Source of the DNA: an uncultured Alphaproteobacteria bacterium
Lineage (GTDB): Bacteria; Pseudomonadota; Alphaproteobacteria; JAPOUT01; G958296285
Direction of reading: 5' to 3'
Length of the DNA stretch: 64,000 nt
Assembly (NCBI GenBank): GCA_958296285.1
Contig: OY282459.1
Location: 1,208,336-1,272,335 of the forward strand
How positions within the stretch are numbered: the first letter of the stretch is position 1; every line of letters starts with the position of its first letter. Below the pieces are notes generated by a model that saw only the letters and a list, made by a program, of their open reading frames with translations, had not been told where the DNA came from and ran no database searches. Shown here piece by piece: positions 32,112-55,916 of the stretch. The translations under genes and the position numbers were made by a program.

Positions 32112-32253
32112 CGCCCTCTTCCATTAACCCTAGCCTAGCCAAGATTATAGCACCTTTTCTCAGCAAGAACTCTTTAGGATTGCGCGAAAAGCCTAGAACA
32201 TCTATTGTCATCAAGACCCTACCATCGCCTCTGGCGCAAAAGAGGAGCGAGAC

Positions 32254-32878: not shown

Positions 32879-32905
32879 ATTTTCGCTGTTCCTCTCTGCT
32901 CGCTT

Positions 32906-33052: not shown

Positions 33053-33118
33053 TTGACCAAAAACATATTCCCTCCTAACTATATGCAAATCATTCTCACT
33101 CGCAAATAAAGCAACCCC

Positions 33119-34907: not shown

Positions 34908-34929
34908 TTAGGCTCGGCGTTTTGACGCG

Positions 34930-35090: not shown

Positions 35091-35111
35091 CGGGGAAATC
35101 TTGTTGAGGCT

Positions 35112-35435: not shown

Positions 35436-35535
35436 GGTTTTCTCCTTCGAATGGTATCTGTGTAGCAGTTTTCTGTCTCACCCGCAATTTCCTAACGAGA
35501 GAAAGAGAAAAAAGCGCCCCACGCGCCCCATGCCG

Positions 35536-35705
35536 CAAGAGCTCTTTTAGCAGGGGGGTCGGCGGGCTTTCTCGCGGGCTTGCGCTGTCGCGCTTCGCCC
35601 GCTTCGTTGCGCCACGCCCGCCGACTTTTCGGGGGGGATTCCCCCCCGATCCCCCTCTTTTTTTGGGGGGCTAGCCCCCCAAACCCCCCTCCACGGGAGC
35701 AAGCC
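35536..35705. repeat. Palindromic repeat family, locus R7 (right arm)
   Basis: CAAGAGCTCTTTTAGCAGGGGGG, the long hairpin, GGGGGGGATTCCCCCCC, GGGGGGCTAGCCCCCC, CACGGGAGCAAGCC. Confidence 0.9.
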
Positions 35706-35728
35706 AAAACTCCTATAATCATAAAACT

Positions 35729-36775
35729 ATGAAAGAAAATATCCGCCCAGCCCTCCTCACCCTCTCCATCAGCGCATTCCTCTGCGCCGCGCCATCCGCC
35801 CGCGCCAACCCCTGCTCAGAGGCCTATGAAAGCGACAAACGCAAAGAAACAAAAAAAGCCTACAGCCTCTGCCTGCCCCTCGCCGTGGAAGGAGACGCCG
35901 AAGCCCAAAAAAACCTCGGATGGCTCCACGCCCACAGCAACCTCGTAACCCAAGATGACGACGTCGCCGTCTATTGGCTCCGCAAAGCCGCGAAGCAAGG
36001 CAATGCGACGGCAGAATATCTCCTCGGCGGAATGTATGAGGACGGCAGAGGAGTCCCGAAAAATAACGAGAAAGCCATGCGATGGTATCTCAAAGCCGCG
36101 AAACAAGGCCAGGCTCTCGCGGAAAATGAACTTGGCTGGATCTATCATAAAGGCACGATCGCCCCGCAAGATTACGCGAAAGCCCTGCGATGGTATCGCA
36201 AAGCCGCCAAGCGTGGCGATGAATGGGCGCAATTTCATCTGGGCAAGATGCTTGAAGAAGGCGAAGGCGTGGAGCAAGATTTCGCCGAAGCCGCGCGCCT
36301 CTATCGCCAAGCGGCGAAGCAGGGCTTGGCATGGGCGCAGTTTCATCTGGGCATGATGTATCAAAAAGGCAAGGGCGTTCCAAAAGACGCGGCGAAAGCC
36401 ATCTTCTGGTATCACGAAGCCGGCAATAAAGGGTGGTCGGAGGCGATCCACGCCCTAGGCGCGATGCACGACAAAGGAGACGGCGTCAAACAGGACAAGG
36501 AGAAAGCCCTTGAATGGTATGGGATAGCCGCTCAGCGAGGCTACGCGGAGTCGCAATATGCGCTCGGCGTGATGCATCGGGACGGCGAGAGCGTGGAGCA
36601 AGATTTGGTGGAAGCGCATAAGTGGATCGGGCTCGCGTCTCCGCACATGAAAAAGGCTCTCAAGGAACTCCTCCTCCTGCAAAAGCAAATGACGCGCGCC
36701 CAAATCGCCGAAGCGCAAGCTCTCGCCCGCGAATGGCACAAAGGTCGGAATGGCAAAGGAAGCGAACCTCCATAA
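35729..36775 (+). CDS. Sel1-repeat protein, secreted (348 aa)
   Basis: Signal peptide and about eight Sel1 units (..A..WY.KAAKQG.A.A...LG.MY..G.GV..D). Confidence 0.85.
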   Translation: MKENIRPALLTLSISAFLCAAPSARANPCSEAYESDKRKETKKAYSLCLPLAVEGDAEAQKNLGWLHAHSNLVTQDDDVAVYWLRKAAKQGNATAEYLLGGMYEDGRGVPKNNEKAMRWYLKAAKQGQALAENELGWIYHKGTIAPQDYAKALRWYRKAAKRGDEWAQFHLGKMLEEGEGVEQDFAEAARLYRQAAKQGLAWAQFHLGMMYQKGKGVPKDAAKAIFWYHEAGNKGWSEAIHALGAMHDKGDGVKQDKEKALEWYGIAAQRGYAESQYALGVMHRDGESVEQDLVEAHKWIGLASPHMKKALKELLLLQKQMTRAQIAEAQALAREWHKGRNGKGSEPP

Positions 36776-38061: not shown

Positions 38062-39013
38062 CGCCGCTTTCGGCGCCGTTGAGGGAAACAGCCAGAGCGC
38101 CGCCTTTAAGGCGCAGGGGCGCATCGCGGCGCTCGTCCGCCAGAGGGCGGAGGCGAAGGCTTGGAGCGAAGCCGCCTCTGAGAAGGAGGGAATCGCCTTC
38201 ACGCCCTTGTCGCCGGCGATTGGCGCGGAGGTGTCGGGCGTTCATCTCTCAGAGCCGTTGGACGAGGCTCGCAAGGCGGTTCTTTATGATGGTCTTTTGG
38301 AGCATAAGGTTCTTTTTTTCCGCGATCAGGACATCACGACCGATCAGCATATCGCCTTCGCTAGGCGTTTTGGGACTTTGGAGAAGCATCCTTTCGCGGC
38401 TGTGAAGGAGGGTTATCCTGAGGTCATTCCGATCACGCATGACGCGGAGAATCCGGGGCGCGAGAATGCGTGGCATAGTGATGTCACGTGGCGGAAGGAG
38501 CCGTCTTTGGGGTCTATTTTGCGTTTGTTGGAGGTGCCGGAGACTGGAGGCGACACGCTTTTCGCTGACATGTATGCGGCGTATGATGGTCTTTCTGACG
38601 AGGTGAAGGAGAAGATTGAGGGTCGCGTGGCGATTCATGATTTCGCGGTATTTCGGGAGCGTTTGAAGAAGCGGGGCGCGTCTGAGGCTGAGATTGAGGC
38701 GTTTAACAGGGAGTATCCGAGGGTGGAGCATCCGATTGTTCGGACGCATCCTGATACGGGTCGGCGGGGGTTGTATGTGAATGTTGCGTTCACGGAGGCG
38801 ATTAGGGACATGGATGATTTGGAGGCTCAGCCTTTGTTGCGGCATTTATATGGGCAGGCGGCGATTCCGGAGTATCAGTGTCGGTTTCGGTGGCGGAGGA
38901 ATTCGGTAGCGTTTTGGGACAATCGTTGCACGCAGCATTATGCGGCGGCGGATTATTGGCCTCGTCGGCGTGTTGCGGAGCGGGTGACGATTGAGGGGGA
39001 TGCGCCTTACTGA
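38054..39013 (+). CDS. TauD/TfdA-family Fe(II)/2-oxoglutarate dioxygenase
   Basis: WHSDVTW (HxD) and ETGGDTLFADM motifs. The start MSDAAF overlaps the thiolase stop. Confidence 0.8.
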   Translation: MSDAAFGAVEGNSQSAAFKAQGRIAALVRQRAEAKAWSEAASEKEGIAFTPLSPAIGAEVSGVHLSEPLDEARKAVLYDGLLEHKVLFFRDQDITTDQHIAFARRFGTLEKHPFAAVKEGYPEVIPITHDAENPGRENAWHSDVTWRKEPSLGSILRLLEVPETGGDTLFADMYAAYDGLSDEVKEKIEGRVAIHDFAVFRERLKKRGASEAEIEAFNREYPRVEHPIVRTHPDTGRRGLYVNVAFTEAIRDMDDLEAQPLLRHLYGQAAIPEYQCRFRWRRNSVAFWDNRCTQHYAAADYWPRRRVAERVTIEGDAPY

Positions 39014-39017
39014 CATG

Positions 39018-39182
39018 CTCCTGTGAAGGGGGGGTTGGGGGGCTAGCCCCCCAAGAAAAGGGGGTTCGGGGGAAACCCCCGAAAAGTCGGCGGGCGTGGC
39101 GAAACGAAGTCCACAAGCCCGAAGGGCGCAGTGAAACGAAGCGGGCGAAGCCGAAGGCAAGCCCGCGAGAAAGCCCGCCGAC
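39018..39182. repeat. Palindromic repeat family, locus R8 (left arm, no centre)
   Basis: CTCCTGTGAAGGGGGGTTGGGGGGCTAGCCCCCC, GGGGGAAACCCCC, and the GTCGGCGGGC...GCCCGCCGAC hairpin with an enlarged loop. Confidence 0.85.
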
Positions 39183-39532
39183 CTTCCCTTATCCTATCTA
39201 AATAGGAGCGCTAACAAGGGGGACTTCTGCGATGAGATTTAACCTTGACTGGCTTTGGACCAGGCTTATTGCCCTTCCGCACAACGCGAGATACGGGCTT
39301 TTTGGGAGGGCATTTACTGCTTTTCTTTGCCATAATAATTGTCTCCTGTGAGGTTAGTTGTGGCGAGAGCGCCATGATCGTCTATATATGGGGTGGAACC
39401 CCCAGATTTTCAATGACTATTAAACAAAATAAACAAAAATTCTCATTGCCTCGTAGAGGCGAGCGCACAAGAAGACCACCGCCATCGCCCTGCATCGCGT
39501 GAATTCATGCTTTTCTGTCGATTTTTCGTATA

Positions 39533-40906
39533 ATGGACGCTATGGGAAAGGATAAGAAAAACGCCGCGATAAAATGGAAGGCTTGCGCCGCCATCTTTTC
39601 TCTATGCGCGGGGATGTTATTTCATGCCGTGCCTCCTGCTTCAGCCGACTCTTGCAAGGCGGCAACTGTTCGTGGGGACTATGAAACCGCCTATCGTTTA
39701 TGCCTGCCTCTTGCCGAGAACGGAGACGCATTGGCGCAGGGCCTTCTCGGCTGGATGTATGAGAATGGCGAGGGCGTTCGGAAGGATTATCAGAGGGCCG
39801 CGCGCTGGTATCGCAAAGCCGCCGATCAGGGAAACGCATCGGTACAGGTCAAACTCGGCTTGATGTATGACGAGGGCAAGGGCGTTCCGAAAGATTATCA
39901 GGAAGCCGCATACTGGTATCGCAAAGCCGCCGATCAGGGCGAGGCACGGGCACAATTCAATCTCGGCATTATGTATCTTAAAGGCGATGGCGTTCCGAAG
40001 GATTATCAGCAAGCCCTGCGCTGGTTTCGCAAAGCCGCCGATCAGGGCGAGGCACGGGCGCAGTACAATCTCGGCGTGATGTATGACTTCGGCAAAGGCG
40101 TTCCGAAGGATTATCAGGAAGCTTACAAGTGGTATAGTTTGGCGGGGGCAAAAGGGCATAAGAGCGCTCGTCATAATCTTAACCTGTTAGAGCGATCCAT
40201 AACGGGGGGGCAGATTGCCGAAGGTCAGAGATTGGCGCGGAACTGGAAGCCTGGCGCAAGCTCCGATGCGGAAAAGTCTCCTGGCAAGAGGCCTCCCTCC
40301 GGCAACGGATCCGGATTTCTTGTCAGCGATAAAGGTCATATTCTCACGAATGAGCATGTCGTCTCCGATTGTCGTTCTTTTCGTGTTTCGCCCCCTGGCG
40401 ATCCCGCCATTTTGCGCGGGCGCGATAAAGCCAACGATTTGGCGTTGTTGCAAGTGCCTCCGCATAAATCCATGCGCCCCGTTTCCTTTCAGGAGCGATC
40501 GGCGCAGCTCGGCAGCGATGTTCTCGCCGTGGGCTACCCTTTGCGCGGAAAGGCAGGACGCGGCTTGAATATCACAAAAGGCACAATAAGCGCTCTTTCG
40601 GATGGCGATGGCGACTCGCGCCTTCTCCAATTCACAGCCCCCGTTCAGCCCGGCAATAGCGGCGGGCCTTTGCTGGACGAGTCGGGACTAGTCGTTGGCG
40701 TCATTGTGAGCCGATTGGAGGAAACGGCGGGCGGGCGTCCTGTGCAGAATGTTAACTTCGCTATCCGCGCTAAAGTGGCGCGCGCATTTCTAGACAGCAA
40801 CTCTGTCCTCTATGAAAGCGGAAAAGGCGGTTGGCTGTCGCCAAAAGCAGAGACGGTCGCCGAGAATGCCCGCGCCCATACCGTCATGGTGGAGTGCTAT
40901 CAATAA
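39533..40906 (+). CDS. Secreted Sel1-repeat / trypsin-like (S1, DegP-type core) serine protease fusion
   Basis: The N-terminal half has Sel1 units, paralogous to 31515..32111. The C-terminal half has GSGFLVSDKGHILTNEHVV (His), NDLALLQV (Asp) and GNSGGPLLD (Ser). Confidence 0.8.
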   Translation: MDAMGKDKKNAAIKWKACAAIFSLCAGMLFHAVPPASADSCKAATVRGDYETAYRLCLPLAENGDALAQGLLGWMYENGEGVRKDYQRAARWYRKAADQGNASVQVKLGLMYDEGKGVPKDYQEAAYWYRKAADQGEARAQFNLGIMYLKGDGVPKDYQQALRWFRKAADQGEARAQYNLGVMYDFGKGVPKDYQEAYKWYSLAGAKGHKSARHNLNLLERSITGGQIAEGQRLARNWKPGASSDAEKSPGKRPPSGNGSGFLVSDKGHILTNEHVVSDCRSFRVSPPGDPAILRGRDKANDLALLQVPPHKSMRPVSFQERSAQLGSDVLAVGYPLRGKAGRGLNITKGTISALSDGDGDSRLLQFTAPVQPGNSGGPLLDESGLVVGVIVSRLEETAGGRPVQNVNFAIRAKVARAFLDSNSVLYESGKGGWLSPKAETVAENARAHTVMVECYQ

Positions 40907-40921
40907 GCCACTCGCTCGCAT

Positions 40922-41060
40922 GAGCTCTTGCGATGCAGGGGGGTCGGCGGGCTTCTCGCCTCGCTACGCTCGGCTTCGTTGCGCCACGCCCGCCGACCTT
41001 TCGGGGGGATTCCCCCCGACCCCCCCTTTCTCAAGGGGGGCAAGCCCCCCTTGACCCCCC
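40922..41060. repeat. Palindromic repeat family, locus R9 (right arm)
   Basis: GAGCTCTTGCGATGCAGGGGGG, the long hairpin, GGGGGGATTCCCCCC, GGGGGGCAAGCCCCCC. Confidence 0.9.
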
Positions 41061-41419
41061 TATTTTTGGTGCTTCCCATAGCGAGGCTGATCCACAGCAA
41101 CCTTATCCAAAACAGTCTCCCAAAGATGATCCTTAAGCGTCTCAAGAGAAATCTCGCCAGCCTCAATTTTCTTGCAAAGACGGCGATTCGCCTCCTCCAG
41201 CGACAGCCCATCCTCTAACCCCAAAAGGCGTTGAAGACGCGCCTTCTCCCTCTCCCGCGCCGCCTCGCCCGAAACAATCTCGCGCATGACAATCTCTAAA
41301 ACATTGACGGCAACCAGCGCATGAAAACGACTCTGATCCTTAAGATCAGGTATCAATTTCTCTTTGATGAAATCACGCGCCGCTCTAAGAAGCGCTTCGG
41401 AAGAAGGCGGATCAAACAT
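41060..41419 (-). CDS. Small helical hypothetical protein partnered with the upstream phosphotransferase
   Basis: 119 aa. It overlaps the stop of 41412..42398. I recall similar small proteins (DUF6285-like) downstream of APH-type kinases, but this is unverified. Confidence 0.5.
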   Translation of the reverse strand: MFDPPSSEALLRAARDFIKEKLIPDLKDQSRFHALVAVNVLEIVMREIVSGEAAREREKARLQRLLGLEDGLSLEEANRRLCKKIEAGEISLETLKDHLWETVLDKVAVDQPRYGKHQK

Positions 41420-43252: not shown

Positions 43253-45358
43253 CTAGCCTGAGCGGAGGGTTCGCGCGGCTTCGTCTCGTCCGAAAAGATA
43301 GAGCAGAAGACGCAGCGCTTCGCCGCGCTCGGATTTTAGTTGCGGATCCTCTTGGAGAATGCGAGCCGCCTCGTCATGCGCCCGCGCGAAGAGATCGCTT
43401 TGGGCGGCTGGGTCTCCGAGCAGAAAACTGACCGCGCCGCTCTGCTTCGTTCCGAGAATCTCGCCGCCGCCCCTGAGGCGCAAATCCTCTTCGGCGATGC
43501 GGAATCCGTCTTCGGTCTCGCGCATGATGTCCAAACGCGCCCGCGCCGTTTCGCCGAGCGGCGCGCGGTAAAGCAGAAGGCACGCCGAATCCTTCTCGCC
43601 CCGCCCGACCCGCCCCCGCATCTGATGCAGCTGCGCCAAGCCGAAGCGCTGCGCGTCCTCTATGACCATCACGGTCGCTTCCGCGACATCCACGCCGACC
43701 TCTATGACGCTTGTCGCGACAAGGAGCTGGATTTTTCCCTGCTGAAAAGCGGTGAGCGTTCGGTCTTTTTCGTCTCCCGCCATGCGTCCATGCACGAGAC
43801 CCGCGCCGCAATCCAAGATCGCCGACAAATGCCGATGCCGATCGCTGGCGGCGGTGAGGGCAAGCGCCGCATCCGCGCCTTCCTCGCCCTCCTCCCCGAC
43901 AAGAGGGCATATCCAATAGACGCGCCGCCCTTGGCTCGCGGCGCGGCGGACGGCTTCCACGACATCGTCCAAACGCTCTAGCGGAAGCGCCCGAGTCGCG
44001 ACAGGACGCCGCCCCGGCGGCTTCTCGCGCAGCGCCGACATATCCATATCGCCATAATGGGCGAGCGCCAAGGTTCGCGGGATCGGGGTCGCCGTCATGA
44101 CGAGCATATCCACGCTTTTGCGCCCTTTGCCGGAGAGCGTCAGCCTCTGATGGACGCCGAAGCGATGCTGCTCGTCAATGACGCAGAGACCCAAATCGCG
44201 GAACGCGACATGTTTTTGGAAAAGACTATGGGTGCCGGCGACAAGCCGCGCCATGCCGGTCTGAATGTCGGTCAGGACGCGGCGCTTCTCCGCCGCCGAT
44301 TGTCGCGCCGTCAGGAGCGTGAGAGGCGCGCCGATCTTTTGGCAGAGCGGCAGAAGCGTCTTAAAATGCTGACGCGCGAGGATTTCGGTCGGCGCCATAA
44401 TCGCCGCCTGCGCTCCGGCTTCCACGGCGTTGAGCATCGCCAAAAAGGCGACGATTGTCTTGCCGCTTCCGACATCCCCTTGCAGAAGACGAAGCATCCG
44501 CATTGGCTGTCCCATATCGCCGTCTATTTCGGCGATCGCCGCCTCTTGCGCTGATGTCAGCGCGAAGGGGAGGGCGCTCATCGCTTTCTCCCGAAGCGCC
44601 GCCGCTTTCGGGAAAATCCGCCCCGGCAGACGGCGCATCCATTGCCGCGTCAGGATAAGCGCGAGCTGGCTCGCCAAATACTCATCATAGGCGAGGCGCT
44701 CGCGCGCCGGCGAGGAGGGCGACAAATCCTCTTCATCTTGAGGCTCATGCGCTTTCAAGACGGCCTCTTTCCATGGCGGCCATTTCTTTTCGCTCATCCA
44801 ATCCGCCGAGAGCCATTCGGGAAGATCGGGCAGGGATTTCAGCGCTCCCCGCGCGATCTTCGCATAGTGCCGAGAGGTGATCCCTGCCGTCACGCGATAG
44901 ACGGGCTCAAAGGCGGGCATTTCGTCATATTCTTGGCGGGTTAGAATATAGTCGGGATGCGCCATTTGTCGGCGTTCTTGGTAGGCTTGAATTGTTCCTG
45001 ATATGAAGCGCGTTTTGCCTGGCGGCAGGACGCGGCGCAGATAATCGGCATGGGCGCGGAAGAAGACGAGTTCCATTTCGCCGGTTTCGTCATGGCATGA
45101 GACGCGATAGGGTTGGCGTCCGAAGGGGCGGGGGGTTTTATGCGCGCCGACTTCCACTTCCAGCGTGGCGAGGGTGCCGGGCTCGGCGTCCGCGATTTTC
45201 ACGCGCCGCGATCGGTTGATGAATCCTGTTGGCAGGCGCCAGCATAGTGAGATCAGGGTTTCGCCTGCCAGTTCGGCGATAATTTTTTTCGCGCGGGGGC
45301 CGATGCCGGGGAGGCTTTGGGTTGGGGTATAGAGTGGGAAGAGGATTTGGGGGCGCAT
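43253..45358 (-). CDS. recG: ATP-dependent DNA helicase RecG
   Basis: GDVGSGKT, DEQHRFG and TATPIPRT motifs. The preferred start is MRPQILF at 45358; the track ORF runs on into repeat R10 (to 45541). Confidence 0.9.
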   Translation of the reverse strand: MRPQILFPLYTPTQSLPGIGPRAKKIIAELAGETLISLCWRLPTGFINRSRRVKIADAEPGTLATLEVEVGAHKTPRPFGRQPYRVSCHDETGEMELVFFRAHADYLRRVLPPGKTRFISGTIQAYQERRQMAHPDYILTRQEYDEMPAFEPVYRVTAGITSRHYAKIARGALKSLPDLPEWLSADWMSEKKWPPWKEAVLKAHEPQDEEDLSPSSPARERLAYDEYLASQLALILTRQWMRRLPGRIFPKAAALREKAMSALPFALTSAQEAAIAEIDGDMGQPMRMLRLLQGDVGSGKTIVAFLAMLNAVEAGAQAAIMAPTEILARQHFKTLLPLCQKIGAPLTLLTARQSAAEKRRVLTDIQTGMARLVAGTHSLFQKHVAFRDLGLCVIDEQHRFGVHQRLTLSGKGRKSVDMLVMTATPIPRTLALAHYGDMDMSALREKPPGRRPVATRALPLERLDDVVEAVRRAASQGRRVYWICPLVGEEGEEGADAALALTAASDRHRHLSAILDCGAGLVHGRMAGDEKDRTLTAFQQGKIQLLVATSVIEVGVDVAEATVMVIEDAQRFGLAQLHQMRGRVGRGEKDSACLLLYRAPLGETARARLDIMRETEDGFRIAEEDLRLRGGGEILGTKQSGAVSFLLGDPAAQSDLFARAHDEAARILQEDPQLKSERGEALRLLLYLFGRDEAARTLRSG

Positions 45359-45390
45359 GGTGTTATCATAGTGCATAGGAGCTTGAAGGT

Positions 45391-45694
45391 GCAGGGGGGT
45401 GTGGGGGGCTAGCCCCCCGCGAAAAGGGGGTTCGGGGGAAACCCCCGAAAAGCGCGTGGGTGGGGTGGGGAAAAAAGCATTTGCGAGCAAACGCAGTGCA
45501 GCGAGCAAATGCGACCCCACCCACGCGCCCCCTGCTCGCAAGAGTTTTTGCGATGCAGGGGGGTCGGCGGGCTTTCTCGCGCACTTGCGCTACGCGCTTC
45601 GTGCGCTTCGTTTCGCCACGCCCGCCGACTATTCGGGGGGATTCCCCCCGACCCCCCCTTTTTCGCGGGGGGTCTCCGACCCCCCACACCCCCC
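45391..45694. repeat. Palindromic repeat family, locus R10 (complete element, both arms)
   Basis: Left arm with a W-type core hairpin (GCGTGGGTGGGGT...), the centre CTGCTCGCAAGAGTTTTTGCGATGCAG, and a right arm with a G-type core hairpin (GTCGGCGGGC...). Confidence 0.9.
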
Positions 45695-45724
45695 TCTTTT
45701 GGAGCTTCAATGGTAAAATGCACC

Positions 45725-46009
45725 ATGGAACCTCTCCGAAAACGCCTCCGCTACAGAGCAGCCCGCCGCGGAACAAAAGAAATGGACCTGATCCTCAACA
45801 ACTTCGCCAACAAAAACCTCGCCAACATGAACCCAACCCAACTCCGCGCCTTTGACGACCTCCTCGCAATCGCCGACCCAGATTTGGAAAACTATCTCAA
45901 AAAAAACCTCCTCCCCCCTTCCATAAAAACAGAGAACCACGCCCTCAAAACAATGCTCCAATCGCTCAAGAAAGATTATCTGTCAGGAGACTTCGCCAAA
46001 AATGTCTGA
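45725..46009 (+). CDS. sdhE: FAD assembly factor SdhE (DUF339)
   Basis: LRYRAARRGTKEMDLIL contains the RGxxE motif. The recG / sdhE-mfd neighbourhood supports it. An alternative start lies at 45710. Confidence 0.75.
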   Translation: MEPLRKRLRYRAARRGTKEMDLILNNFANKNLANMNPTQLRAFDDLLAIADPDLENYLKKNLLPPSIKTENHALKTMLQSLKKDYLSGDFAKNV

Positions 46010-49000
46010 CGCGCCGCTCTCATGGTCTGATCTGACAGGAGAAGCTTTTCCTAATCTGCCCAATGAAGGCGCTCTGAAAATCGGCGGCGCGGCGCAGCCT
46101 CTGGACGCGCTCTTTGTCGCCGAAGCGCTGAAAACCAACAGAATCACAAGCGCGCTCTGGATCGTCAGCGGCAACGCCAGACTCGCCGCGCTTGCCAAAA
46201 CGCTGGACATCCTCGCCCCCAATCTCCAAAAAATCACGATCCCCGCCTGGGACTGCCTCCCCTATGATCGCGTCTCGCCCGATCCGACAAGCGCCGCCGA
46301 AATCGCCGCAGCCCTCGCCGAAATCGCGCAGGACGCCAAGACCGCTCCGCTTATCCTCGCCGCCGCCCCGATGGTCTCGCGGAAGATTCCGCCCAAAAAC
46401 ATCATGGCGGAAGGCTCTCTGACGATAAGAAAAGGCGAGAGGCAGGACAGAGCCTCCATCATCCGCTTTCTTGAGCGATGGGGTTTTAGGCGCGCGGCGT
46501 CTGTCGCGCAGCTCGGAGACTATGCCCTTCGCGGGAGCATCATAGACGTCTATCCGCCCCGCGCCGCGCCGACACGGATAGATTTCTTCGGCGATGAGGC
46601 GGAGACCCTCCGCCATTTTGACGTGGCAAGCCAGCGCACGCTCGCCGAAACGGAGAGAATCACAATCCGCGCCGCCAGCGAAGTCAGGCTGGACGAAGAA
46701 ACCGCCAAAAACTTTCGGACAGCATGGCGCGAGATTTTCGGCGTCAAGGCGGCGCGCGAAACTTTTCCGACAGCGATCGGCGAGAGAATCCGCGAACCGG
46801 GCATGGAGCATAATCTCCCTCTTTTCTATCAAACCATGACGACGATCTTCTCCTATATCCCTCAAAATGCCGCGATTTTTCTAGATCCCGACAGCGAAGA
46901 GGCGGCAGAGCGGCATCGCGATCTCATCCGCTCCTGCCATGACGAGCGCGCGCGACTCGCCAAACACGCCGAAGAAGAGGAGGCATGGCGACCCCTTCCT
47001 CCCAAAAAACTCTGGCTGGACGAAAAACTATGGCGGCAGGCGCTTCAAGCGCGGCGCGGTCTGACGTTCAGCCCTTTCGCCGCGAGAGACGGAATCGCCG
47101 ATTTGGGAGGGCGAGCCGTTCCGGATTTCTCCGCGCATCGCATAAAGAGGGAAGGGCTTCTTCAAGCGCTCCGCGAGCGCGCCCAAGAAATTTGGAAAAC
47201 AGGCGGGATGGTTCTCCTCGCGGCGCGAGACGAGGCGGCATTGAATCGTCTTGAAAACACGCTGGAAAAAGAAGCCGCGCTCCCATCGGCGCGGACGGAT
47301 TGGACGCGCCTCGCCTCTCTGCCTCCGAAAACTGTCGGTCTGATCGCGATCCCGCTAGAAACAGGCTTTCGCGTCAGGCGTCTGACGCTGCTGACGGAAG
47401 GCGATCTCTTCGGACATAAAAGACGCCGCCCTATCGCGATCTCGCGCGCGGACGCGAAAGACGTTCTCCGCCGCTTTCAATCGCTGATGCCCGGCGATCT
47501 GATCGTCCATCTGGAACATGGAGTCGGACGCTTCCACGGACTCCGCCGCCTCCGCGTCTCCGAAGACGAGCATGAATGTTTTGAACTCGTCTATCAGAAT
47601 GACGACCGCCTGCTGCTGCCTGTGGAAAACGCCGAACTCCTCTCGCGCTATGGCGGAGACGGCGAAGCCCCGCTGGACAAACTCGGCGCGGCGGGATGGC
47701 AGGCGCGTCATGCGCGAGTGAAAAAGCGCGTCCGCGAGATGGCAGGGGAGCTTATTCGGTTGGCGGCGGAGCGCAGCGCCTCGCAGGCGGCGCGCTTGAC
47801 CCCGCCCCAAGGACTCTATGACGAATTCCGCGCCCGCTTCCCCTATGACGAAACCCCCGATCAGGCGCGAGCCGAAGAAGAGATGATCGCCGATCTCTCG
47901 GCAGGAAAGCCGATGGATCGTCTGATTTGCGGGGATGTCGGCTTCGGCAAGACCGAGCTCGCGCTCCGCGCCGCCTTCATTGTGGCGATGGCGGGGCGGC
48001 AGAGCGCTATCATCACGCCAACGACCCTCCTCTGCCGACAGCATCTGGAGACGTTCCGCCTCCGTTTTGAAGGCTTGCCGATGAAAATCGGCCATGTGTC
48101 CCGACTCGTCTCGCGCAAGGAGATTGACGCCGCCCGCCGTCAATGCCGAGACGGAACGATGGACATCGTCATCGGAACCCATGCGCTTTTGTCGGAAGAG
48201 ACGGCGTTCCGCGATCTGGGGCTTCTTGTCGTGGATGAAGAGCAGCATTTCGGGGTCGCCCATAAAGAGAGGCTGAAGGCGCTCAAGGAGAAGAAGGAGA
48301 ATGTCCATGTGCTGACGCTGACGGCGACTCCGATCCCGCGCACGCTGCAGCTGGCGCTCTCCGGAGCGCGGGATATGTCCCTGATTGGGACGCCGCCGCG
48401 CGACCGCATCTCGGTGCAGAGTTTCGTCGGCCCCTTTGACGCGATGACGCTCCGCCGCGCCATGATCCGCGAGAAGGCGCGGGGAGGGCAGAGTTTTATT
48501 GTCGTCCCGCGCATATCCGATCTGCCTCGGATGGAGCGCTTTTTAGAAACCCATCTCGCCGACCTCAAGAGAATCGCGCTTCACGGACGCATGCCCCCTA
48601 AAGAGATGGAGCGCGGCATCGGCGCGTTCTATGACGGAAACGCCGATATTCTCCTCTCCACCCATATTGTGGAATCCGGGCTGGACATCCCCGCCGCCAA
48701 CACGATCATCATTTATCGGTCGCATATGTTTGGCTTGGCGCAGCTGCATCAGCTGCGGGGGAGGGTCGGGCGATCCGATCGGCAAGCCTATGCCTATTTC
48801 ACGCTGCCGGCAGGCGCTCTGACAGGCAATGCCGAGCGCAGATTGTCGGCGCTTCAGGCGGTCGATTCTTTGGGCGCGGGCTTCTCATTGGCGGCGCAGG
48901 ATTTGGATCTGCGCGGCGCAGGGAATCTCCTCGGCGCCGAGCAGTCCGGACATATCCGCGAAGTCGGCTATGAACTCTATCAGCAGATGCTGGAAGACGC

Positions 49001-49607
49001 CGTCCGAAATCTTCGCCAAAATGGCGTTCGCCAAAATGGCGTGCGCCAAAATGGCGTTCGCCAAAATGGCGTCCGCAAAGAGGGCGAAAGCCCGAAAGAC
49101 GCCGAAGCGCCGTTCTCCCCGACGATGAGGATTGGCGTCACGGCGCTCATTCCCGAAGATTACGCGCCGGATTTGGCGCTCCGCCTGCGTCTCTATCGCC
49201 GCCTCGCCGATATGACCCGCGATTCGGAGATAGAGGAATTCCGCGAGGAACTGCGAGACCGTTTCGGCGCGACTCCTCCGCCTTTGGAGAATCTGCTCAA
49301 ACTCGCCTCTTTGAAGAATCTCTGCCGCCGCGCGAATATCGCTTCGGTGGAGGCGGGCGCGGGCGGCGGACGTTTCACGTTCCATCGCGGGCGGTTCGCC
49401 AATCCCGAAGGTCTGGCGCGCTTTCTGATGGAGGGGGCGGGCGCGTCTCTTTCGCCGGATCATGTCCTTTCCGTCCGAAGAGATTGGCGCGAGAATCGCA
49501 TGGAGGCGCTGCAGGATTTCCTTGCGCGTCTTGTCAAGATTGCCGAAAATACAAATACAGCCAACAATGGAGCGACAAGAGAAAGCGATGCTAAAACCCC
49601 TCTCTGA
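46002..49607 (+). CDS. mfd: Transcription-repair coupling factor
   Basis: 1201 aa, with GDVGFGKTE, DEEQHFGV, TATPIPRT and the central CarD-like region HLEHGVGRF. Confidence 0.95.
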   Translation: MSDAPLSWSDLTGEAFPNLPNEGALKIGGAAQPLDALFVAEALKTNRITSALWIVSGNARLAALAKTLDILAPNLQKITIPAWDCLPYDRVSPDPTSAAEIAAALAEIAQDAKTAPLILAAAPMVSRKIPPKNIMAEGSLTIRKGERQDRASIIRFLERWGFRRAASVAQLGDYALRGSIIDVYPPRAAPTRIDFFGDEAETLRHFDVASQRTLAETERITIRAASEVRLDEETAKNFRTAWREIFGVKAARETFPTAIGERIREPGMEHNLPLFYQTMTTIFSYIPQNAAIFLDPDSEEAAERHRDLIRSCHDERARLAKHAEEEEAWRPLPPKKLWLDEKLWRQALQARRGLTFSPFAARDGIADLGGRAVPDFSAHRIKREGLLQALRERAQEIWKTGGMVLLAARDEAALNRLENTLEKEAALPSARTDWTRLASLPPKTVGLIAIPLETGFRVRRLTLLTEGDLFGHKRRRPIAISRADAKDVLRRFQSLMPGDLIVHLEHGVGRFHGLRRLRVSEDEHECFELVYQNDDRLLLPVENAELLSRYGGDGEAPLDKLGAAGWQARHARVKKRVREMAGELIRLAAERSASQAARLTPPQGLYDEFRARFPYDETPDQARAEEEMIADLSAGKPMDRLICGDVGFGKTELALRAAFIVAMAGRQSAIITPTTLLCRQHLETFRLRFEGLPMKIGHVSRLVSRKEIDAARRQCRDGTMDIVIGTHALLSEETAFRDLGLLVVDEEQHFGVAHKERLKALKEKKENVHVLTLTATPIPRTLQLALSGARDMSLIGTPPRDRISVQSFVGPFDAMTLRRAMIREKARGGQSFIVVPRISDLPRMERFLETHLADLKRIALHGRMPPKEMERGIGAFYDGNADILLSTHIVESGLDIPAANTIIIYRSHMFGLAQLHQLRGRVGRSDRQAYAYFTLPAGALTGNAERRLSALQAVDSLGAGFSLAAQDLDLRGAGNLLGAEQSGHIREVGYELYQQMLEDAVRNLRQNGVRQNGVRQNGVRQNGVRKEGESPKDAEAPFSPTMRIGVTALIPEDYAPDLALRLRLYRRLADMTRDSEIEEFREELRDRFGATPPPLENLLKLASLKNLCRRANIASVEAGAGGGRFTFHRGRFANPEGLARFLMEGAGASLSPDHVLSVRRDWRENRMEALQDFLARLVKIAENTNTANNGATRESDAKTPL
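49024..49083 (+). repeat. In-frame 15-bp tandem repeat x4 (plus a partial fifth) inside mfd
   Basis: CGCCAAAATGGCGT(T/G/C) repeated, encoding (RQNGV)x4. Confidence 0.9.
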
Positions 49608-52869: not shown

Positions 52870-53849
52870 AGAGGCTGACAGACAATTTCGGTCGCCGCAT
52901 TGATTATTTGCGTCTTTCGGTCACGGATCGCTGCAATTTGCGATGCGTGTATTGCATGCCGAAGAGGATGCGATTTCTTCCGAAGAGGGATGTTCTATCC
53001 ATTGAGGAGTTGGAGGCGCTGGCTTCGGCTTTCATTCGGCGGGGCGTCAGGGCTGTGCGGATCACCGGCGGCGAGCCTTTGATGCGCGGCGGCGTGATGC
53101 GATTGTTTCGCGCTTTGTCCCGTCATTTGCGCCGAGGGGATTTGGACGAGATCGCTTTAACGACGAATGGGTCGCGTCTTGCGTCTTTTGCCGGCGCTTT
53201 GAGGGATTGCGGCGTGGAGCGCGTCAATGTTTCTTTGGACACGTTGAAGCCTGATATTTTTTCGGCGCTGACGCGGGGCGGGTTGCTTTCGGAGGTTTTA
53301 TCGGGGCTTGAGGCTGCTGACAAAGCGGGGTTGAGGGTTAAGATTAATCTTGTTGTTCTTGGCGATGCGAATCTTGATGAGGTTCCGGAGGTTATTATGT
53401 GGGCGCATGGTCGGGGTTATGCGGTTTCGTTGATTGAGGTTATGCCGTTGGGGGATGTGGGCGAGGATCGTTTGGCGCAATATGTTCCGTTGGATTTTGT
53501 TCGGCGGCGTTTGTCTGAGCGATGGGTTTTGGAGGCGGAGGGTTATCGGAGTTTGGGGCCGTCGCGTTATGTTCGGGTGAGGGAGACGGGGGGGTTATTG
53601 GGTTTTATCACGCCGTTGACGGAGAATTTTTGCGCTTCGTGCAATCGGGTTCGGGTGAGTTGTGTTGGGGAGTTTTTTGGGTGTTTGGGTCGCGGGGTTT
53701 CTGTGGATTTGCGCGGGGCGTTGCGCGGGGGATTTTTGGATGAGGCGATAGACAGGGCGTTATTGGGGAAGATGTGGGGTCATGATTTTCGGATTGGTGG
53801 GGGAGTTGGGGTGCCTGTGGCGCGGCATATGTCGGTGACGGGGGGCTAG
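52866..53849 (+). CDS. moaA: GTP 3',8-cyclase (molybdenum cofactor biosynthesis)
   Basis: Radical-SAM CNLRCVYC motif and a C-terminal CASCNR cluster motif. ATGA overlap with the upstream gene. Confidence 0.9.
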   Translation: MKRLTDNFGRRIDYLRLSVTDRCNLRCVYCMPKRMRFLPKRDVLSIEELEALASAFIRRGVRAVRITGGEPLMRGGVMRLFRALSRHLRRGDLDEIALTTNGSRLASFAGALRDCGVERVNVSLDTLKPDIFSALTRGGLLSEVLSGLEAADKAGLRVKINLVVLGDANLDEVPEVIMWAHGRGYAVSLIEVMPLGDVGEDRLAQYVPLDFVRRRLSERWVLEAEGYRSLGPSRYVRVRETGGLLGFITPLTENFCASCNRVRVSCVGEFFGCLGRGVSVDLRGALRGGFLDEAIDRALLGKMWGHDFRIGGGVGVPVARHMSVTGG

Positions 53850-53890
53850 GCGGCTCCCGTTGAGGGGGGTTTGGGGGGCTAGCCCCCCAA

Positions 53891-53916
53891 GAAAAACCAA
53901 GCGGGCGAAGCCCGCT
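53891..53916 (-). terminator. Intrinsic-terminator-like hairpin in the R11 left arm (minus-strand sense)
   Basis: On the minus strand it reads AGCGGGC-TTC-GCCCGCT followed by TGGTTTTTC. It would end transcripts of the SBP gene after they cross the element. Confidence 0.45.
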
Positions 53917-54088
53917 ATAGTCGGCGGGCGTGGCGAAACGAAGCGAGCGTTAGCGAGCGAGAAAGCCCGCCGACCCCCCTGCTAGAAGAGCTCTTGTAAG
54001 CAGGGGCGGTTGGGGGGTGGGTCGCTTTTCCTCGTTTCGCTACGCTTCACTCGGAAAAGCTTTTTTCCCACCCCACCCCCCAACCTAT

Positions 54089-54118
54089 AGGCTGCCTTAC
54101 GGCAGCCTTGGTTTTTTT
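54089..54118 (+). terminator. Intrinsic-terminator-like hairpin in the R11 right arm
   Basis: AGGCTGCC-TTAC-GGCAGCCT followed by TGGTTTTTTT, downstream of moaA on the same strand. Confidence 0.5.
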
Positions 54119-54143
54119 GGGGGGCAAGCCCCCCAAACCCCCC

Positions 54144-55916
54144 TCAACGGGAGCCCCCCTCAAGCCACCACAAATCCGCCGCCGTCCCATATAACGAACC
54201 CCTCTCAGGAAACCCAACCCAATCCCATGCCGCTAACCACTGATCCCCCGAATAAAACAACGGAATCACATAAAACCCCGACAACAAAACCCGATCCAAC
54301 GCCCTCACCGCATCCCGAAAACCCCCACGATCCTCAGCCCCAACCAACGCCCCTATCAAAAAATCCACAGCCCCAGACCGAACCCCCGCATAATTCCTGC
54401 TCCCCTCAAACCCCGCCGCCTCACTCCCCCAATAAAAAGCCTGCTCATTCCCAGGCGACAACGATACCCCCCAACGATAAAAAATCATGTCAAAATCAAA
54501 ATCCCTCATCCGACGCTCCCCCTGCGCCGAATCCACAAAACGAACCCGAGCCTCCACCCCCGCCAACCGCAACTGCCGCGCGAAAACTAAAGCCAACCGC
54601 TCCTCATGACGCCGAACACACAAAATCTCAAAACGAAAAACCTCGCCCCCAACATCCCGAAGAACGCCGCCCTCTAAAAACCACCCCGCCTCCCCAAAAA
54701 GCGCGAGCGCCGCCCTCCGACCCGCCCGATTGTGCCGACCCTCCGAAACAGGCGGACGATAACCGCCCTCCAAAATCTCCGGCGCAACCTCATCAGCAAA
54801 AGACGCAAGCAAAGCGCGCTCGCCAGCGCTCGCCCCCAACCCATGAGACGATAAATCCGAATTGGCGAAAAAACTCCCAATCCGCCGATACTTCCCATGA
54901 AAAAGATGCGCATTAATCCACTCAGCATCCAACAAAAGCGAAAGAGCCTCGCGGACGCGCCTGTCCGAAAAAATCCCCCGCCGCGTGTTGAAAACAAGAC
55001 CCCACATGCCAGACGGCGACCCCGTCGGAATCTCCTTCAACAGAATGCGTCCGCGATCCCTCGCCGGCGCGTCATATTGAACAGCCCAGCGCGAAACATC
55101 TCGCTCCGCGCGCGCGTCAATCTCGCCCGCCTTAAAAGCCTCAAAAGCCGAACCCTCATCACGAAAATAACGATACAAAACCCGATCCGCATTAAATCGC
55201 CCGCGATTGACAGGCAAATCCTTCCCCCAATAATCCAAATCGCGCTGATAAAGAATCTTCTCGCCCGGCGCGATCTCGGCAACCCGATACGCCCCGCTCC
55301 CTAAAGGCGTTTTAAGAGAGGTCTCGTCAAACCTATGCTTCGTGAAATAAGCCCGCGACAAGATCGGCATCAAACCCATAATGAGCGGCATCTCCCTGTC
55401 GCTCCCCGCCTTGAAAACAAAACGGACGCCCCGCGCGCCAACCTTCTCCATCCGAGCGATCTTGCCATAATAAAAACGATGATTCGGACGACCCTTCTCC
55501 CGAAGCGTCCGCGCCGAAAACAAAACATCCTCCGCGCGGACAGGAGAGCCGTCAGAAAAACGCGCCTTCGGATGAAGCGTGAAAAGAACGGAGCTTCTGT
55601 CCGGCGGCGTCTCAATCGTCTCGGCAAGAAGACCATAAAGCGTGAAAGGCTCGTCCCATCCGCGCGCCATCAGACTCTCATAGACAAATTCGCGCAAGCC
55701 GGCGGCAGGCTTCCCCCGAATGATGAAAGGATTGACGCTGTCAAACGTCCCGCTGCGCGAAAGATGAAGCGTCCCGCCTTTCGGCGCGTCAGGACGAACA
55801 TAGGGAAAATGAGAGAAGCCTCTCTGATAAAGCGGCGCGCCATGCATGGCGATCGCGTGAGAATCGGCGAGAGCGCCCCCGGCGTCCGCCGTCAGAAAAG
55901 CGCAGGCGAGCGCCAA
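54144..55916 (-). CDS. Family-5 extracellular solute-binding protein (orphan ABC SBP, YejA-like)
   Basis: 590 aa, SBP_bac_5-like throughout. No permease or ATPase gene is adjacent. The last codons and the stop lie inside the R11 terminal repeat. Confidence 0.8.
   Translation of the reverse strand: MALACAFLTADAGGALADSHAIAMHGAPLYQRGFSHFPYVRPDAPKGGTLHLSRSGTFDSVNPFIIRGKPAAGLREFVYESLMARGWDEPFTLYGLLAETIETPPDRSSVLFTLHPKARFSDGSPVRAEDVLFSARTLREKGRPNHRFYYGKIARMEKVGARGVRFVFKAGSDREMPLIMGLMPILSRAYFTKHRFDETSLKTPLGSGAYRVAEIAPGEKILYQRDLDYWGKDLPVNRGRFNADRVLYRYFRDEGSAFEAFKAGEIDARAERDVSRWAVQYDAPARDRGRILLKEIPTGSPSGMWGLVFNTRRGIFSDRRVREALSLLLDAEWINAHLFHGKYRRIGSFFANSDLSSHGLGASAGERALLASFADEVAPEILEGGYRPPVSEGRHNRAGRRAALALFGEAGWFLEGGVLRDVGGEVFRFEILCVRRHEERLALVFARQLRLAGVEARVRFVDSAQGERRMRDFDFDMIFYRWGVSLSPGNEQAFYWGSEAAGFEGSRNYAGVRSGAVDFLIGALVGAEDRGGFRDAVRALDRVLLSGFYVIPLFYSGDQWLAAWDWVGFPERGSLYGTAADLWWLEGGSR

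Follow-up and report, generated by a model that had tools for sequence, protein, structure and literature searches.

Mirror-image strand bias around palindromic repeat units in a small alphaproteobacterial genome: evidence that its sign follows the side of the repeat rather than transcription

In replication-associated strand skew the leading strand carries more G than C and more T than A, with a change of sign at the origin and at the terminus, and in vertebrate mitochondrial DNA the heavy strand accumulates C>T and A>G changes in step with the time it spends single-stranded. Both resemble a bias found in a small alphaproteobacterial genome, of which a stretch of 64,000 nucleotides (the window) was analysed. 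As in replication skew, one strand shows the excess of G over C and of T over A, mostly at third codon positions, and each repeat unit resembles a miniature terminus; however, a chromosome has two such sign changes whereas eight occur here in approximately 40 kb, the bias extends over about 1.4 kb and is linked to a repeat family rather than to ori/ter, and its third-position amplitude is 0.5-0.8 in the flanks as opposed to within about 0.2 in the genome background. As in the mitochondrial heavy strand, C>T and A>G changes on one strand accompany G/T-richness and a positional gradient, but here the pattern is bipolar, occurs at many dispersed sites of a bacterial chromosome and leaves the total substitution rate unraised, with partner-strand rates below background.

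Palindromes and resected breaks offer further parallels. It has been reported that a long palindrome in E. coli is cut by SbcCD to give a two-ended break repaired from the sister chromosome (PMC3315005, PMC4752480), that repair in this lacZ palindrome system involves RecBCD and Chi (PMC3315005, PMC4752480, PMC8386832) and that the DNA synthesis involved is convergent (PMC4752480, PMC8386832). The units described here (230-310 nt) share with that palindrome a fixed site, very stable hairpin potential, a two-sided effect on roughly a kilobase of flank and a high rearrangement of the unit itself; on the other hand, the lacZ palindrome is engineered, single and was followed over hours, and cleavage, SbcCD and Chi apply here only by analogy. 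No evolutionary compositional footprint of the lacZ system was found in the literature. In yeast, single-stranded DNA at resected breaks is known to be hypermutable, and the mutation clusters seen there and in cancer kataegis (PMC6786661, PMC3521656) show the same strand switch, with the 3'-ended strand affected on each side, but these are somatic bursts of raised mutation density, often due to APOBEC in a TC context, whereas the present flanks are at steady state, filtered by selection, rate-neutral and devoid of strong sequence context. Like REP/BIME/REPIN and MITE-type repeats, the units are multi-copy, intergenic, mosaic GC-rich hairpins arranged as inverted halves, whose copies differ through module shuffling, but they are much larger (230-800 nt), may enclose gene cargo and have kilobase skew gradients in their flanks, a feature on which the titles and abstracts of papers on those repeats (PMC2817692, PMC3116915, PMC3184786) are silent. 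A literature search found no earlier description of a mirror-image strand bias around palindromic repeats.

Skewed flanks of approximately 1-1.5 kb lie on each side of the repeat copies. At all eight units of the window G and T prevail on the plus strand to the left of the repeat and C and A to its right, in every case it is the strand ending 3' at the repeat that is rich in G and T, and the cumulative skew has a maximum at each unit; left-minus-right contrasts range from 0.29 to 0.99 (z = 4.2-14.3), and the top nine peaks of a blind scan all coincide with repeats. The bias declines smoothly from about +0.4 to 0 across some 1.4 kb, running through gene boundaries, with equal amplitudes on the left and the right. 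It is greatest at third codon positions and leaves second positions nearly unaffected, and flank third positions compared with background are raised in T and G and lowered in C and A, with GC content falling from 0.60 to 0.54; no one oriented oligomer is prominent there, and the depletion of C extends to all dinucleotide contexts. Two independent sister-strain assemblies give the same profile. Recently acquired DNA (cargo, the island of low GC content and a replaced allele with 73% identity) is free of the skew, which indicates that the bias accumulates in place. The skew is still present at a site with only a left arm (L044 9764-12935) and at an armless site (L046 9786-10442), so that the bias may not depend on an intact hairpin.

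A divergently transcribed locus illustrates the pattern around unit E8 (45389-45693; R10 of the earlier note), a 305-nt composite palindrome defined by repeat families and inverted pairs. It consists of a G-run outer left arm (45394-45451), a first inner hairpin GCGCGTGGGTGGGG...CCCCACCCACGCGC (45452-45528), a central palindrome (45532-45558), a second inner hairpin GTCGGCGGGC...GCCCGCCGAC (45563-45629) and a C-run outer right arm (45630-45694), with a predicted single-stranded fold of -127.7 kcal/mol (z = -14.8) and no family match in Rfam; the order of the inner hairpins is flipped in a sister strain. The assignments of recG (43253-45358, minus strand), sdhE (45725-46009, plus strand) and mfd (46002-49607, plus strand), all pointing outward from the unit, hold, for recG by translation and for all three by RecG, Sdh5 and TRCF domains on the genes called at the syntenic locus L041; recG further has 22 orthologues at 48-56% identity, and sdhE matches Pfam Sdh5 with E = 1.4e-19. 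In the left skewed flank (44850-45388) the plus strand, whose 3' end faces the repeat, is G/T-rich, with (G+T-A-C)/N of +0.27, +0.19 and +0.11 in successive 200-nt bins outward and a GC skew of up to +0.46. In the right flank (45694-46400) the plus strand is C/A-rich, and the G/T-rich minus strand has its 3' end towards the repeat, with bins of -0.31, -0.22, -0.22 and -0.12 and a GC skew as low as -0.49. The skew reaches about 500 nt leftward and 700 nt rightward, and the contrast is 0.44 (z = 6.4 against the repeat-free background of the window). A recount of the two intervals first singled out gave the same 31 G and 6 C at 45301-45360 (A10 C6 G31 T13), which is indeed the antisense of recG codons 1-19, and the same 6 G and 23 C at 45781-45840 (A23 C23 G6 T8). 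Among 28,963 background windows of 60 nt more than 2.5 kb away from any repeat, none equals the former G-C value of +25 (maximum 19), and 0.5% attain the latter value of -17.

Amino-acid content, controlled for by means of orthologues, does not account for these values. The recG sense strand is C/A-rich over its first approximately 500 nt (45358 down to about 44850), and its first 300 nt have a sense value of -0.24, outside the range of -0.10 to +0.16 in the 22 orthologues; for sdhE the sense (G+T-A-C)/N is -0.38 compared with -0.09 to +0.01 in 13 orthologues, with third-position GC and T-A skews of -0.66 and -0.56. In mfd the skew is confined to the first 400 nt or so, the first 133 codons giving -0.18 as against -0.11 to +0.10 in 13 orthologues. 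The divergent locus had been proposed to argue against a transcription-based cause, and it does so only by contrast with convergent and tandem loci; taken alone it fits a transcription-linked cause, because recG and sdhE both have C/A-rich sense strands. The polarity is indeed the same at unit E9 (53849-54158), which lies between the convergent genes moaA(+) and SBP5(-) and has the strongest gradient of the window (contrast 0.99, z 14.3), and at unit E1 (17451-18146), located between the tandem genes cysNC(+) and glmU(+).

The suggested classification by gene orientation was carried out on the plus-strand third-position (G+T-A-C)/N of 33 flank gene segments, from the window and four further loci of sister strains. 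Mean values were +0.58 for genes on the left pointing toward the repeat (n = 12), +0.37 on the left pointing away (n = 5), -0.49 on the right pointing away (n = 9) and -0.57 on the right pointing toward it (n = 7). Across these four classes the sign depended on side in 32 of the 33 segments (p = 8e-9), in agreement with the claim that the asymmetry tracks position relative to the palindrome and not the coding strand. Two genes lying between two repeats even change sign inside a single ORF, namely a DAHP synthase gene (L044 17175-18551; -0.58 then +0.52) and a biotin-synthase-like gene (L049 8754-9764; -0.53 then +0.61). These data support the view that the sign of the bias is set by the side of the repeat, independently of transcription. 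Genes pointing toward the repeat have somewhat larger magnitudes than those pointing away (0.58 versus 0.45, p = 0.11), so that a small additive sense-strand effect on top of the side effect would be compatible with the data.

Substitutions were polarised in a three-strain comparison of the right flank of E8 and both flanks of E9, the master strand being the one whose 3' end faces the repeat. In these three flanks C>T, A>G and G>T occur on the master strand at 1.72, 1.44 and 1.84 times background and on the partner strand at 0.66, 0.58 and 0 times, values that derive from small counts (15, 11, 9, 7, 7, 0) and from a three-taxon polarisation that is ambiguous for the root-bearing branch. The total rate at all sites is 0.0182 in the flanks and 0.0186 in the background; the strand asymmetry is thus ongoing and the total rate unchanged. 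A dead relic predicts a forward fraction of 0.34 and is rejected (P = 0.002) by 24 forward versus 18 reverse transitions in the polarised set. Forward/reverse ratios at third positions, estimated from the third-position skews, are approximately 3-4 on average and 6-8 in the most skewed flanks beside the boundary.

With its geometry, its independence of transcription, its concentration at third positions and its ongoing, rate-neutral asymmetry observed directly, the flank bias looks like a trace left in evolution by strands being removed and resynthesised time and again, as in break or nick repair. That this happens recurrently, in the 5'->3' direction and from the repeat outward, is the best explanation, to which we give about an even chance of being correct; we infer strand removal as the cause, and any enzyme that would start it is likewise a matter of inference. 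One strand would be removed 5'->3' from the unit, outward on both sides, in tracts seldom longer than about 1.5 kb, and then resynthesised, either through resection and fill-in of a two-ended double-strand break, for instance after hairpin or cruciform cleavage, or through nick translation out of nicks at both unit ends. The strand with its 3' end toward the repeat would survive as master strand and template its new partner, so that its lesions and misincorporations (deaminated C and A, oxidised G) would be copied and fixed and those on the removed strand erased; therefore substitutions would shift between strands while the total rate stayed the same, and over 12 pooled flanks the 50 transitions found are close to the 53 that such a symmetric redistribution would give. 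At equilibrium the master strand would be G/T-rich, which is the plus strand on the left and the minus strand on the right, and the gradient would mirror the length distribution of tracts. Equal left and right amplitudes are predicted by a two-ended process, and a G/T-rich strand 3'-ended at the repeat is predicted, by sequence logic, by 5'->3' removal of its partner. By the same logic 3'->5' removal, outward transcription and an origin-like site would each give the opposite polarity. The recombinational activity of the units, the lack of skew in recently acquired DNA and the SbcCD-cut palindrome of E. coli also speak for this reading. One difficulty is that the observed ratios would call for strands to be replaced in considerably more than half of all lineage-generations, unless damage to exposed single strands adds in; another is the skew at the one-armed and the armless site.

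Alternative readings differ in how they deal with the rate-neutral substitution pattern. With plain hypermutation, recurrent breaks would expose 3' tails or displaced strands to extra deamination of C and A, and a raised local mutation rate would drive the skew, as in the vertebrate mitochondrial heavy strand or yeast break clusters. The polarity, the C>T and A>G changes on the exposed strand and the GC dip all agree with this, as does the yeast precedent, yet third-position divergence is not elevated in 12 pooled flanks (0.0242 versus 0.0234 in the background), nor is the all-site rate; a stationary model with a simply raised forward rate expects 95 transitions in these flanks where 50 were found (P = 2e-7), and extra damage alone could not lower partner-strand rates below background. 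A raised rate could be masked by homogenising recombination between strains, but we regard the reading as doubtful. A fixation bias at a recombination hot spot, by which G or T on the 3'-ended strand is favoured at sites of frequent break and exchange, is possible though rather unlikely. It might operate through selection, since G/T-rich tails would be better at RecA loading and pairing, look like Chi-type signals and fold less, or through base-specific repair of fixed-polarity heteroduplex, that is, strand-asymmetric biased gene conversion. It does predict raised forward and lowered reverse changes without a rate effect (53 transitions expected under symmetric redistribution, 50 observed, and the per-base ratios), and it agrees with the frequent G<->T exchanges on the master strand (20 versus an estimated 12.6 or so expected by composition), with the turnover of units and cargo between strains and with the reported binding of RecA to TGG and to Chi-like, GT-rich DNA (PMC3763553). 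On the other hand, oligomer and dinucleotide composition single out no signal, selection would be needed on synonymous sites that number in the hundreds and lie as far as 1.4 kb away, repair from an identical sister chromosome would leave no mismatches for conversion, and no known glycosylase bias would be expected to yield T and G together on one strand.

Other readings turn on polarity and shape. Each unit might be a local termination zone, where after each break both strands are degraded to a Chi-like site and rebuilt by two repair forks converging on the unit, thus imposing the ordinary leading-strand G/T bias from both sides. This is improbable, for although the units have the polarity of a replication terminus and convergent repair synthesis has the E. 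coli precedent, ordinary replication skew is weak here (background third-position skews within about +/-0.2), at most one extra replication per generation would be too little for skews of 0.5-0.8, and a plateau up to discrete Chi sites is predicted where a smooth fall from the boundary is seen. An asymmetry caused by transcription, be it from lesions in the non-template strand or from transcription-coupled repair, has a base signature of the same kind (a G/T-rich non-template strand) and would fit the slightly larger skews of unit-facing genes, but it is very improbable given that the sense-strand sign splits exactly by orientation (19 positive, 13 negative) and flips within two single ORFs, and that the skew climbs toward the unit at 5' and 3' gene ends alike; transcription running outward from the unit would give the reverse sign, and an inward version needs strong antisense promoters in every away-pointing gene. 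Finally, we give scarcely any credence to the absence of any process, with amino-acid content, a foreign origin of the neighbouring genes or an artefact of assembly or sequencing as the source. Composition does differ among genes, and this is all that speaks for it; the recG, sdhE and mfd orthologues lack the bias, core genes with intact ORFs make up the flanks, the profile recurs in the two sister-strain assemblies, and truly foreign DNA beside units is the unskewed part.

The most conserved 24-mer of the unit occurs neither in GTDB representative genomes nor in JGI metagenomes, and no transposase associated with the units was seen in the DNA analysed. The remaining units of the window vary in architecture. 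E2 (26896-27126) has an SDR gene on its left, where the skew is strong, and borders a low-GC island on its right, where it is weak; E3 (31297-31527) has a minus-strand GFA gene on its left, a second case of a left-side gene pointing away; and E4 (32898-33066) consists of the centre and right arm only. Cargo is found in E1, with a small ORF inside, in E5 (34916-35713), which contains a DUF1640-like gene (35112-35435, minus strand), and in the composite E6-E7 (39011-41061), whose left (39011-39189) and right (40907-41061) arms enclose 1.7 kb of unskewed cargo with a Sel1-trypsin gene, the skew lying only outside the arms. The interior of E1 is inverted in strain B, and more generally unit interiors are inverted or rebuilt, and cargo swapped, between strains with 98-99% identical flanks: the units are recombinationally active.

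Compositional asymmetry between bacterial DNA strands is normally ascribed to replication and, to a lesser extent, to transcription. In the window, local asymmetry is set by a dispersed repeat family and overrides gene orientation. This family is represented by nine copies or arms (E1-E9) of one mosaic hairpin element, which make up eight functional units (E6-E7 being one composite unit) with varying module order and with arm pairs that are 72-98% complementary, forming an inverted repeat able to adopt a hairpin or cruciform. When bias is expressed throughout as (G+T-A-C)/N of the + strand, that strand is G/T-rich to the left and C/A-rich to the right of every unit in the window, and the left-minus-right contrast over 600 nt amounts to 0.29-0.99 per unit (z = 4.2-14.3), against 0.00 +/- 0.07 with a maximum of 0.22 in repeat-free background. 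A blind scan of the window placed its nine highest peaks all on units. Averaged over 11 clean flanks, the bias declines from about +0.4 at the unit boundary to zero at about 1.4 kb, continuing across gene boundaries, with GC content lowered from 0.60 to 0.54 in the same flanks. In the unit at 39011-41061, whose two arms enclose a cargo of 1.7 kb, skew is absent from this cargo and the gradients begin outside the arms.

The unit at the divergent locus, E8, is a composite palindrome of 305 nt (45389-45693) situated between recG (43253-45358, - strand) and sdhE (45725-46009, + strand, Pfam Sdh5), with mfd (46002-49607, + strand) beyond the latter; genes carrying the same domains as these three are called at the syntenic locus of a sister strain. 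Folded as single-stranded DNA, E8 forms an outer stem of some 55 bp and reaches -127.7 kcal/mol (z = -14.8). It matches no Rfam family, the sole Rfam matches of the window at the gathering threshold being three tRNAs. The base counts reported in the earlier note are exact, with 31 G and 6 C at 45301-45360 and 6 G and 23 C at 45781-45840; in a set of 28,963 60-nt windows, all at a distance of over 2.5 kb from the nearest repeat, a G-C difference of +25 is never reached (maximum 19), and one of -17 is reached by 0.5%. In successive 200-nt bins the bias runs +0.27, +0.19 and +0.11 leftward of E8, and -0.31, -0.22, -0.22 and -0.12 rightward. Only some 30 nt separate the palindrome from either start codon (45359-45388 on the recG side and 45694-45724 on the sdhE side), so that both promoters must lie in or across it. 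A GGAGCTTNAA-like word is present on both sides of E8 and could be a target-site duplication.

To separate side from orientation, 33 flank gene segments were classified, 16 from the window and 17 from sister-strain loci (L044, L046 and L049) that had been found via a multi-copy DUF1640-like cargo protein; the orthologous loci of the other sister strain (L045 and L047) entered the divergence comparison only. Mean third-position bias of the + strand was +0.58 for genes on the left pointing toward the unit (n=12) and +0.37 for those pointing away (n=5), and on the right it was -0.49 for genes pointing away (n=9) and -0.57 for those pointing toward it (n=7). The earlier proposal that the sign of the skew follows side and not orientation was thus borne out in 32 of the 33 segments (p = 8e-9). 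Transcription-associated asymmetry, which keeps a constant sign relative to the sense (non-template) strand, is contradicted: the sense-strand third-position sign was positive in 19 cases and negative in 13, split exactly by orientation, and two open reading frames lying between two units flip sign internally, namely that of DAHP synthase (L044 17175-18551; -0.58 in its 5' part, +0.52 in its 3' part) and a biotin-synthase-like gene (L049 8754-9764; -0.53, then +0.61). Taken alone, recG-sdhE would fit a transcription-linked cause, because both sense strands are C/A-rich, and it is the contrast with the convergent (moaA/SBP5, around E9) and tandem (cysNC/glmU, around E1) loci that is decisive. 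The position-not-transcription reading is therefore supported. Amino-acid content is excluded as the cause, since sense bias over the initial 300 nt of recG is -0.24 (third positions -0.58), outside the -0.10 to +0.16 of 22 orthologues, and that of sdhE is -0.38, whereas 13 orthologues range from -0.09 to +0.01; a foreign origin and an artefact are likewise contradicted. The sole exception to the side rule, and the only flank segment devoid of skew, is a hypothetical gene (L044 15897-16856 versus L047 15660-16640) with 73% identity between strains that are otherwise 98-99% identical; the allele was therefore probably replaced recently, and looks like an allelic replacement at a recombination hot spot.

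The bias resides mostly at third codon positions, second positions being nearly unaltered. Third-position GC and T-A skews are +0.54 and +0.87 in cysNC, -0.74 and -0.65 in glmU, +0.55 and +0.75 in moaA, +0.70 and +0.83 in SBP5 (sense) and -0.66 and -0.56 in sdhE; in size, these skews are 0.4-0.87 in flank genes, compared with values within about +/-0.2 in background genes. On the strand running 5' to 3' toward the unit, third positions contain A 0.07, C 0.17-0.18, G 0.46-0.48 and T 0.285, against A 0.15, C 0.35, G 0.35 and T 0.15 in background, i.e. C and A have been lost and T and G gained. Depletion of C in the flanks occurs after every 5' base, and a k-mer scan of the flanks revealed no dominant k-mer, no oriented Chi-like oligomer and no deaminase context.

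Among GTDB representatives, the closest RecG shares 56% identity, exact searches with MoaA, GlmU and GFA of the window gave no match, and the 24-mer best conserved in the unit, GTCGGCGGGCGTGGCGMAACGAAG, was absent from GTDB representative genomes and JGI metagenomes. Two sister lineages were found in ENA assemblies, strain A as a circular-looking 1.72-Mb contig and strain B in the contigs of ERZ19489054; in their flanks they share 98-99% identity with the window, and they display the same gradients. The locus P0002/L042 was discarded as an outgroup, as it belongs to an unrelated organism with 68% GC and without skew. Comparison between strains showed that the units are remodelled: the interior of E1 is inverted (window 17607-18066 versus L043 12805-13256), the inner hairpins of E8 have swapped order (45389-45693 versus L041 2508-2820), and E9 carries other modules together with a copy of window 31217-31296 (53849-54158 versus L041 10985-11390). 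One insertion site adjoining the nuo operon contains different cargo by strain, a DUF1640-like gene being accompanied in L044 (10001-12925) by a restriction-modification pair (an N6_N4 methyltransferase and a HinfI-type endonuclease), and in L047 (10001-13138) by a TnpB-like gene (RuvC_1, Cas12f1-like_TNB).

Third-position divergence between strains was 0.0183 within 500 nt of a unit, 0.0200 at 501-1000 nt, 0.0217 at 1001-2000 nt and 0.0216 beyond 2000 nt, and with 12 flanks pooled it was 0.0242 versus 0.0234 in far regions. Simple local hypermutation was rejected on this equality of flank and far divergence. Against 50 transitions observed, a stationary model in which forward changes (C>T, A>G) are simply raised predicts 95 (P = 2e-7), symmetric redistribution between strands predicts 53, and a dead relic at background rates predicts 62. 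Singletons polarised among three lineages (the right flank of E8 and both flanks of E9; rates per base within 1200 nt, relative to far regions) were compared between the master strand, whose 3' end faces the unit, and its partner: C>T changes stood at x1.72 (n=15) on the master strand versus x0.66 (n=11) on the other, A>G at x1.44 (n=9) versus x0.58 (n=7) and G>T at x1.84 (n=7) versus 0 (n=0), counts that are small and whose polarisation is ambiguous on the root-bearing branch. The total polarised rate was 0.0182 in flanks versus 0.0186 in far regions, and thus the asymmetry redistributes substitutions between strands and adds none. Transitions in the polarised flanks comprised 24 forward and 18 reverse changes, a forward fraction of 0.57 that rejects a dead relic of a past process (0.34 expected at background rates, P = 0.002), which argues that the asymmetry is maintained now, near equilibrium.

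On either side of a unit it is always the strand ending 3' at the unit that is favoured, and the amplitude is the same on the two sides. This arrangement may reflect a two-ended process at the unit that takes off the partner strand in the 5' to 3' direction, equivalently by break resection with fill-in or by nick translation from nicks at both unit ends. The removed strand would be resynthesised on the retained strand, such that lesions or misincorporations on the retained strand would become fixed up to twice as often per lineage and those on the removed strand would be erased, down to zero, with the sum of rates constant. The pooled transition counts and the polarised per-base rates have the pattern that strand removal and resynthesis predicts, which suggests that this process, starting from the unit, causes the skew. 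The opposite sign would be expected from 3' to 5' degradation, from outward transcription, from an origin-like site and from strand displacement starting at the unit. Third-position forward/reverse ratios near the boundary, which we estimate at up to about 6-8 in the most skewed flanks, would require that strands be replaced very often, unless single-strand damage contributes as well. Skew also occurs at one site that has a single arm (L044 9764-12935) and at another that has none but retains the family's typical small cargo gene (L046 9786-10442); unless these sites are relics, the trigger must be something other than the hairpin.

Other processes have to be weighed against strand removal. 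A fixation bias, whether through selection for G/T-rich recombinogenic tails or through strand-asymmetric biased conversion, fits the rates equally well, and the cited passages on RecA describe a preference for G/T-rich recombinogenic DNA (PMC3763553); however, a search for an oriented motif in the flanks gave none. Convergent repair forks would give the right sign of skew but seem too weak, ordinary replication skew being small in this genome. Plain hypermutation of exposed single strands conflicts with the unaltered total rate. It has also been examined whether templated growth of the palindrome into its flanks (quasi-palindrome correction) could be involved, and this was rejected, as left/right complementarity did not exceed the prediction from composition and codon periodicity.

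Several known systems share part of these features. Replication skew likewise enriches G over C and T over A on one strand, most strongly at synonymous positions, but it changes sign once each at origin and terminus, on the scale of replichores, whereas eight local sign changes, each about 1-1.5 kb wide, occur here from kb 17 to kb 54 of the window. Gradients of single-strand exposure, of the mtDNA heavy-strand or kataegis type, show a graded excess of C>T and A>G on the exposed strand, as the 3'-ended strand does here, but they raise the local rate, which is not raised here. The base signature is that of replication skew and the mitochondrial heavy strand, and the geometry that of strand-switching mutation clusters at breaks. 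In yeast, single-stranded DNA at resected breaks has been shown to gather strand-coordinated mutations (PMC6786661, PMC3521656). For E. coli, the cited passages describe cleavage of long palindromes by SbcCD and repair from the sister chromosome (PMC3315005, PMC4752480, PMC8386832), and E8 is, as in such break sites, a long near-perfect inverted repeat. As multi-copy intergenic palindromic mosaics, with nine copies or arms in 64 kb and further copies in L044 and L049, the units also recall REP/BIME/REPIN elements or MITEs and resemble large REP/BIME-like mosaics; no transposase was seen in the window, and a TnpB-like cargo gene occurs at one site in one strain. In full-text searches, no description was retrieved of skew gradients that extend for kilobases, mirror each other around the copies of a dispersed repeat family and are independent of gene orientation; the phenomenon is a form of strand-asymmetric substitution with a new geometry and a proposed new cause.

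It seems possible, if somewhat short of probable, that the repeats are chronic, perhaps programmed, break or nick sites densely distributed in a 1.7-Mb genome, and that strand replacement there is a third general source of strand-asymmetric evolution besides replication and transcription. Synonymous sites and some amino acids have been reshaped in core genes such as recG, sdhE, glmU, moaA, nuoA and that of DAHP synthase; if the repeats are such sites, strand replacement would recode essential genes, at third positions and in some amino acids, over about 1.4 kb on each side, leaving in the sequence a quantitative evolutionary trace of repair-tract lengths and of the strand that acts as inherited master. 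Likewise, if strand removal is recurrent, the flanks would constitute a natural, long-term read-out, otherwise requiring engineered systems, of the frequency of palindrome processing in vivo, the reach of resection or nick translation, and the conversion of lesions on retained versus removed strands into substitutions. In genomes rich in such repeats, skew-based prediction of origin and terminus, codon-usage measures and phylogenies are open to local distortion.

The DUF1640-like cargo protein is a small, coiled-coil, membrane-anchored protein with a 33-nt internal repeat and a faint DUF1640/CCDC90 match, encoded at 35112-35435 (- strand) in the window and at 10001-104xx in L044, L045, L046, L047 and L049. 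The family is lineage-restricted, with at least 14 paralogues per 1.7-Mb genome that sit at skew-switch sites, including the arm-less L046 9786-10442. Using a Sel1 protein as query for paralogous loci failed, as matches were swamped by unrelated Sel1 proteins, and the repeat 25-mer GGGGGGTTTGGGGGGCTAGCCCCCC was set aside, since all it matched was an unrelated short hairpin motif, chiefly from Rhodobacteraceae. This 25-mer is part of a conserved motif of about 35 nt, AAATATCCTGGGGGGTTTGGGGGGCTAGCCCCCC, that adjoins genes in many Rhodobacteraceae and a few unrelated bins, and no flank skew was found at the sites of either sequence in L001-L014. A low-GC island (0.46-0.53; window 27100-33000) is bounded by units, whose flanks facing it are weakly skewed, and contains a duplicated tRNA (28562-28634 and 30660-30732), a Bor-like lipoprotein, a DUF2335 gene and a Sel1 gene. 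Repeats within coding regions, at 48997-49101, 61138-61212, 31674-31997, 35990-36412 and 39713-40135, consist of 15-nt tandem repeats and of 108-nt Sel1 repeat arrays, the latter common to three Sel1 genes, including one carried as cargo within a unit. Two tandem paralogues of an MFS transporter (56468-58486 and 58550-60028) share about 72% nucleotide identity, the first being fused to an APS-kinase domain.
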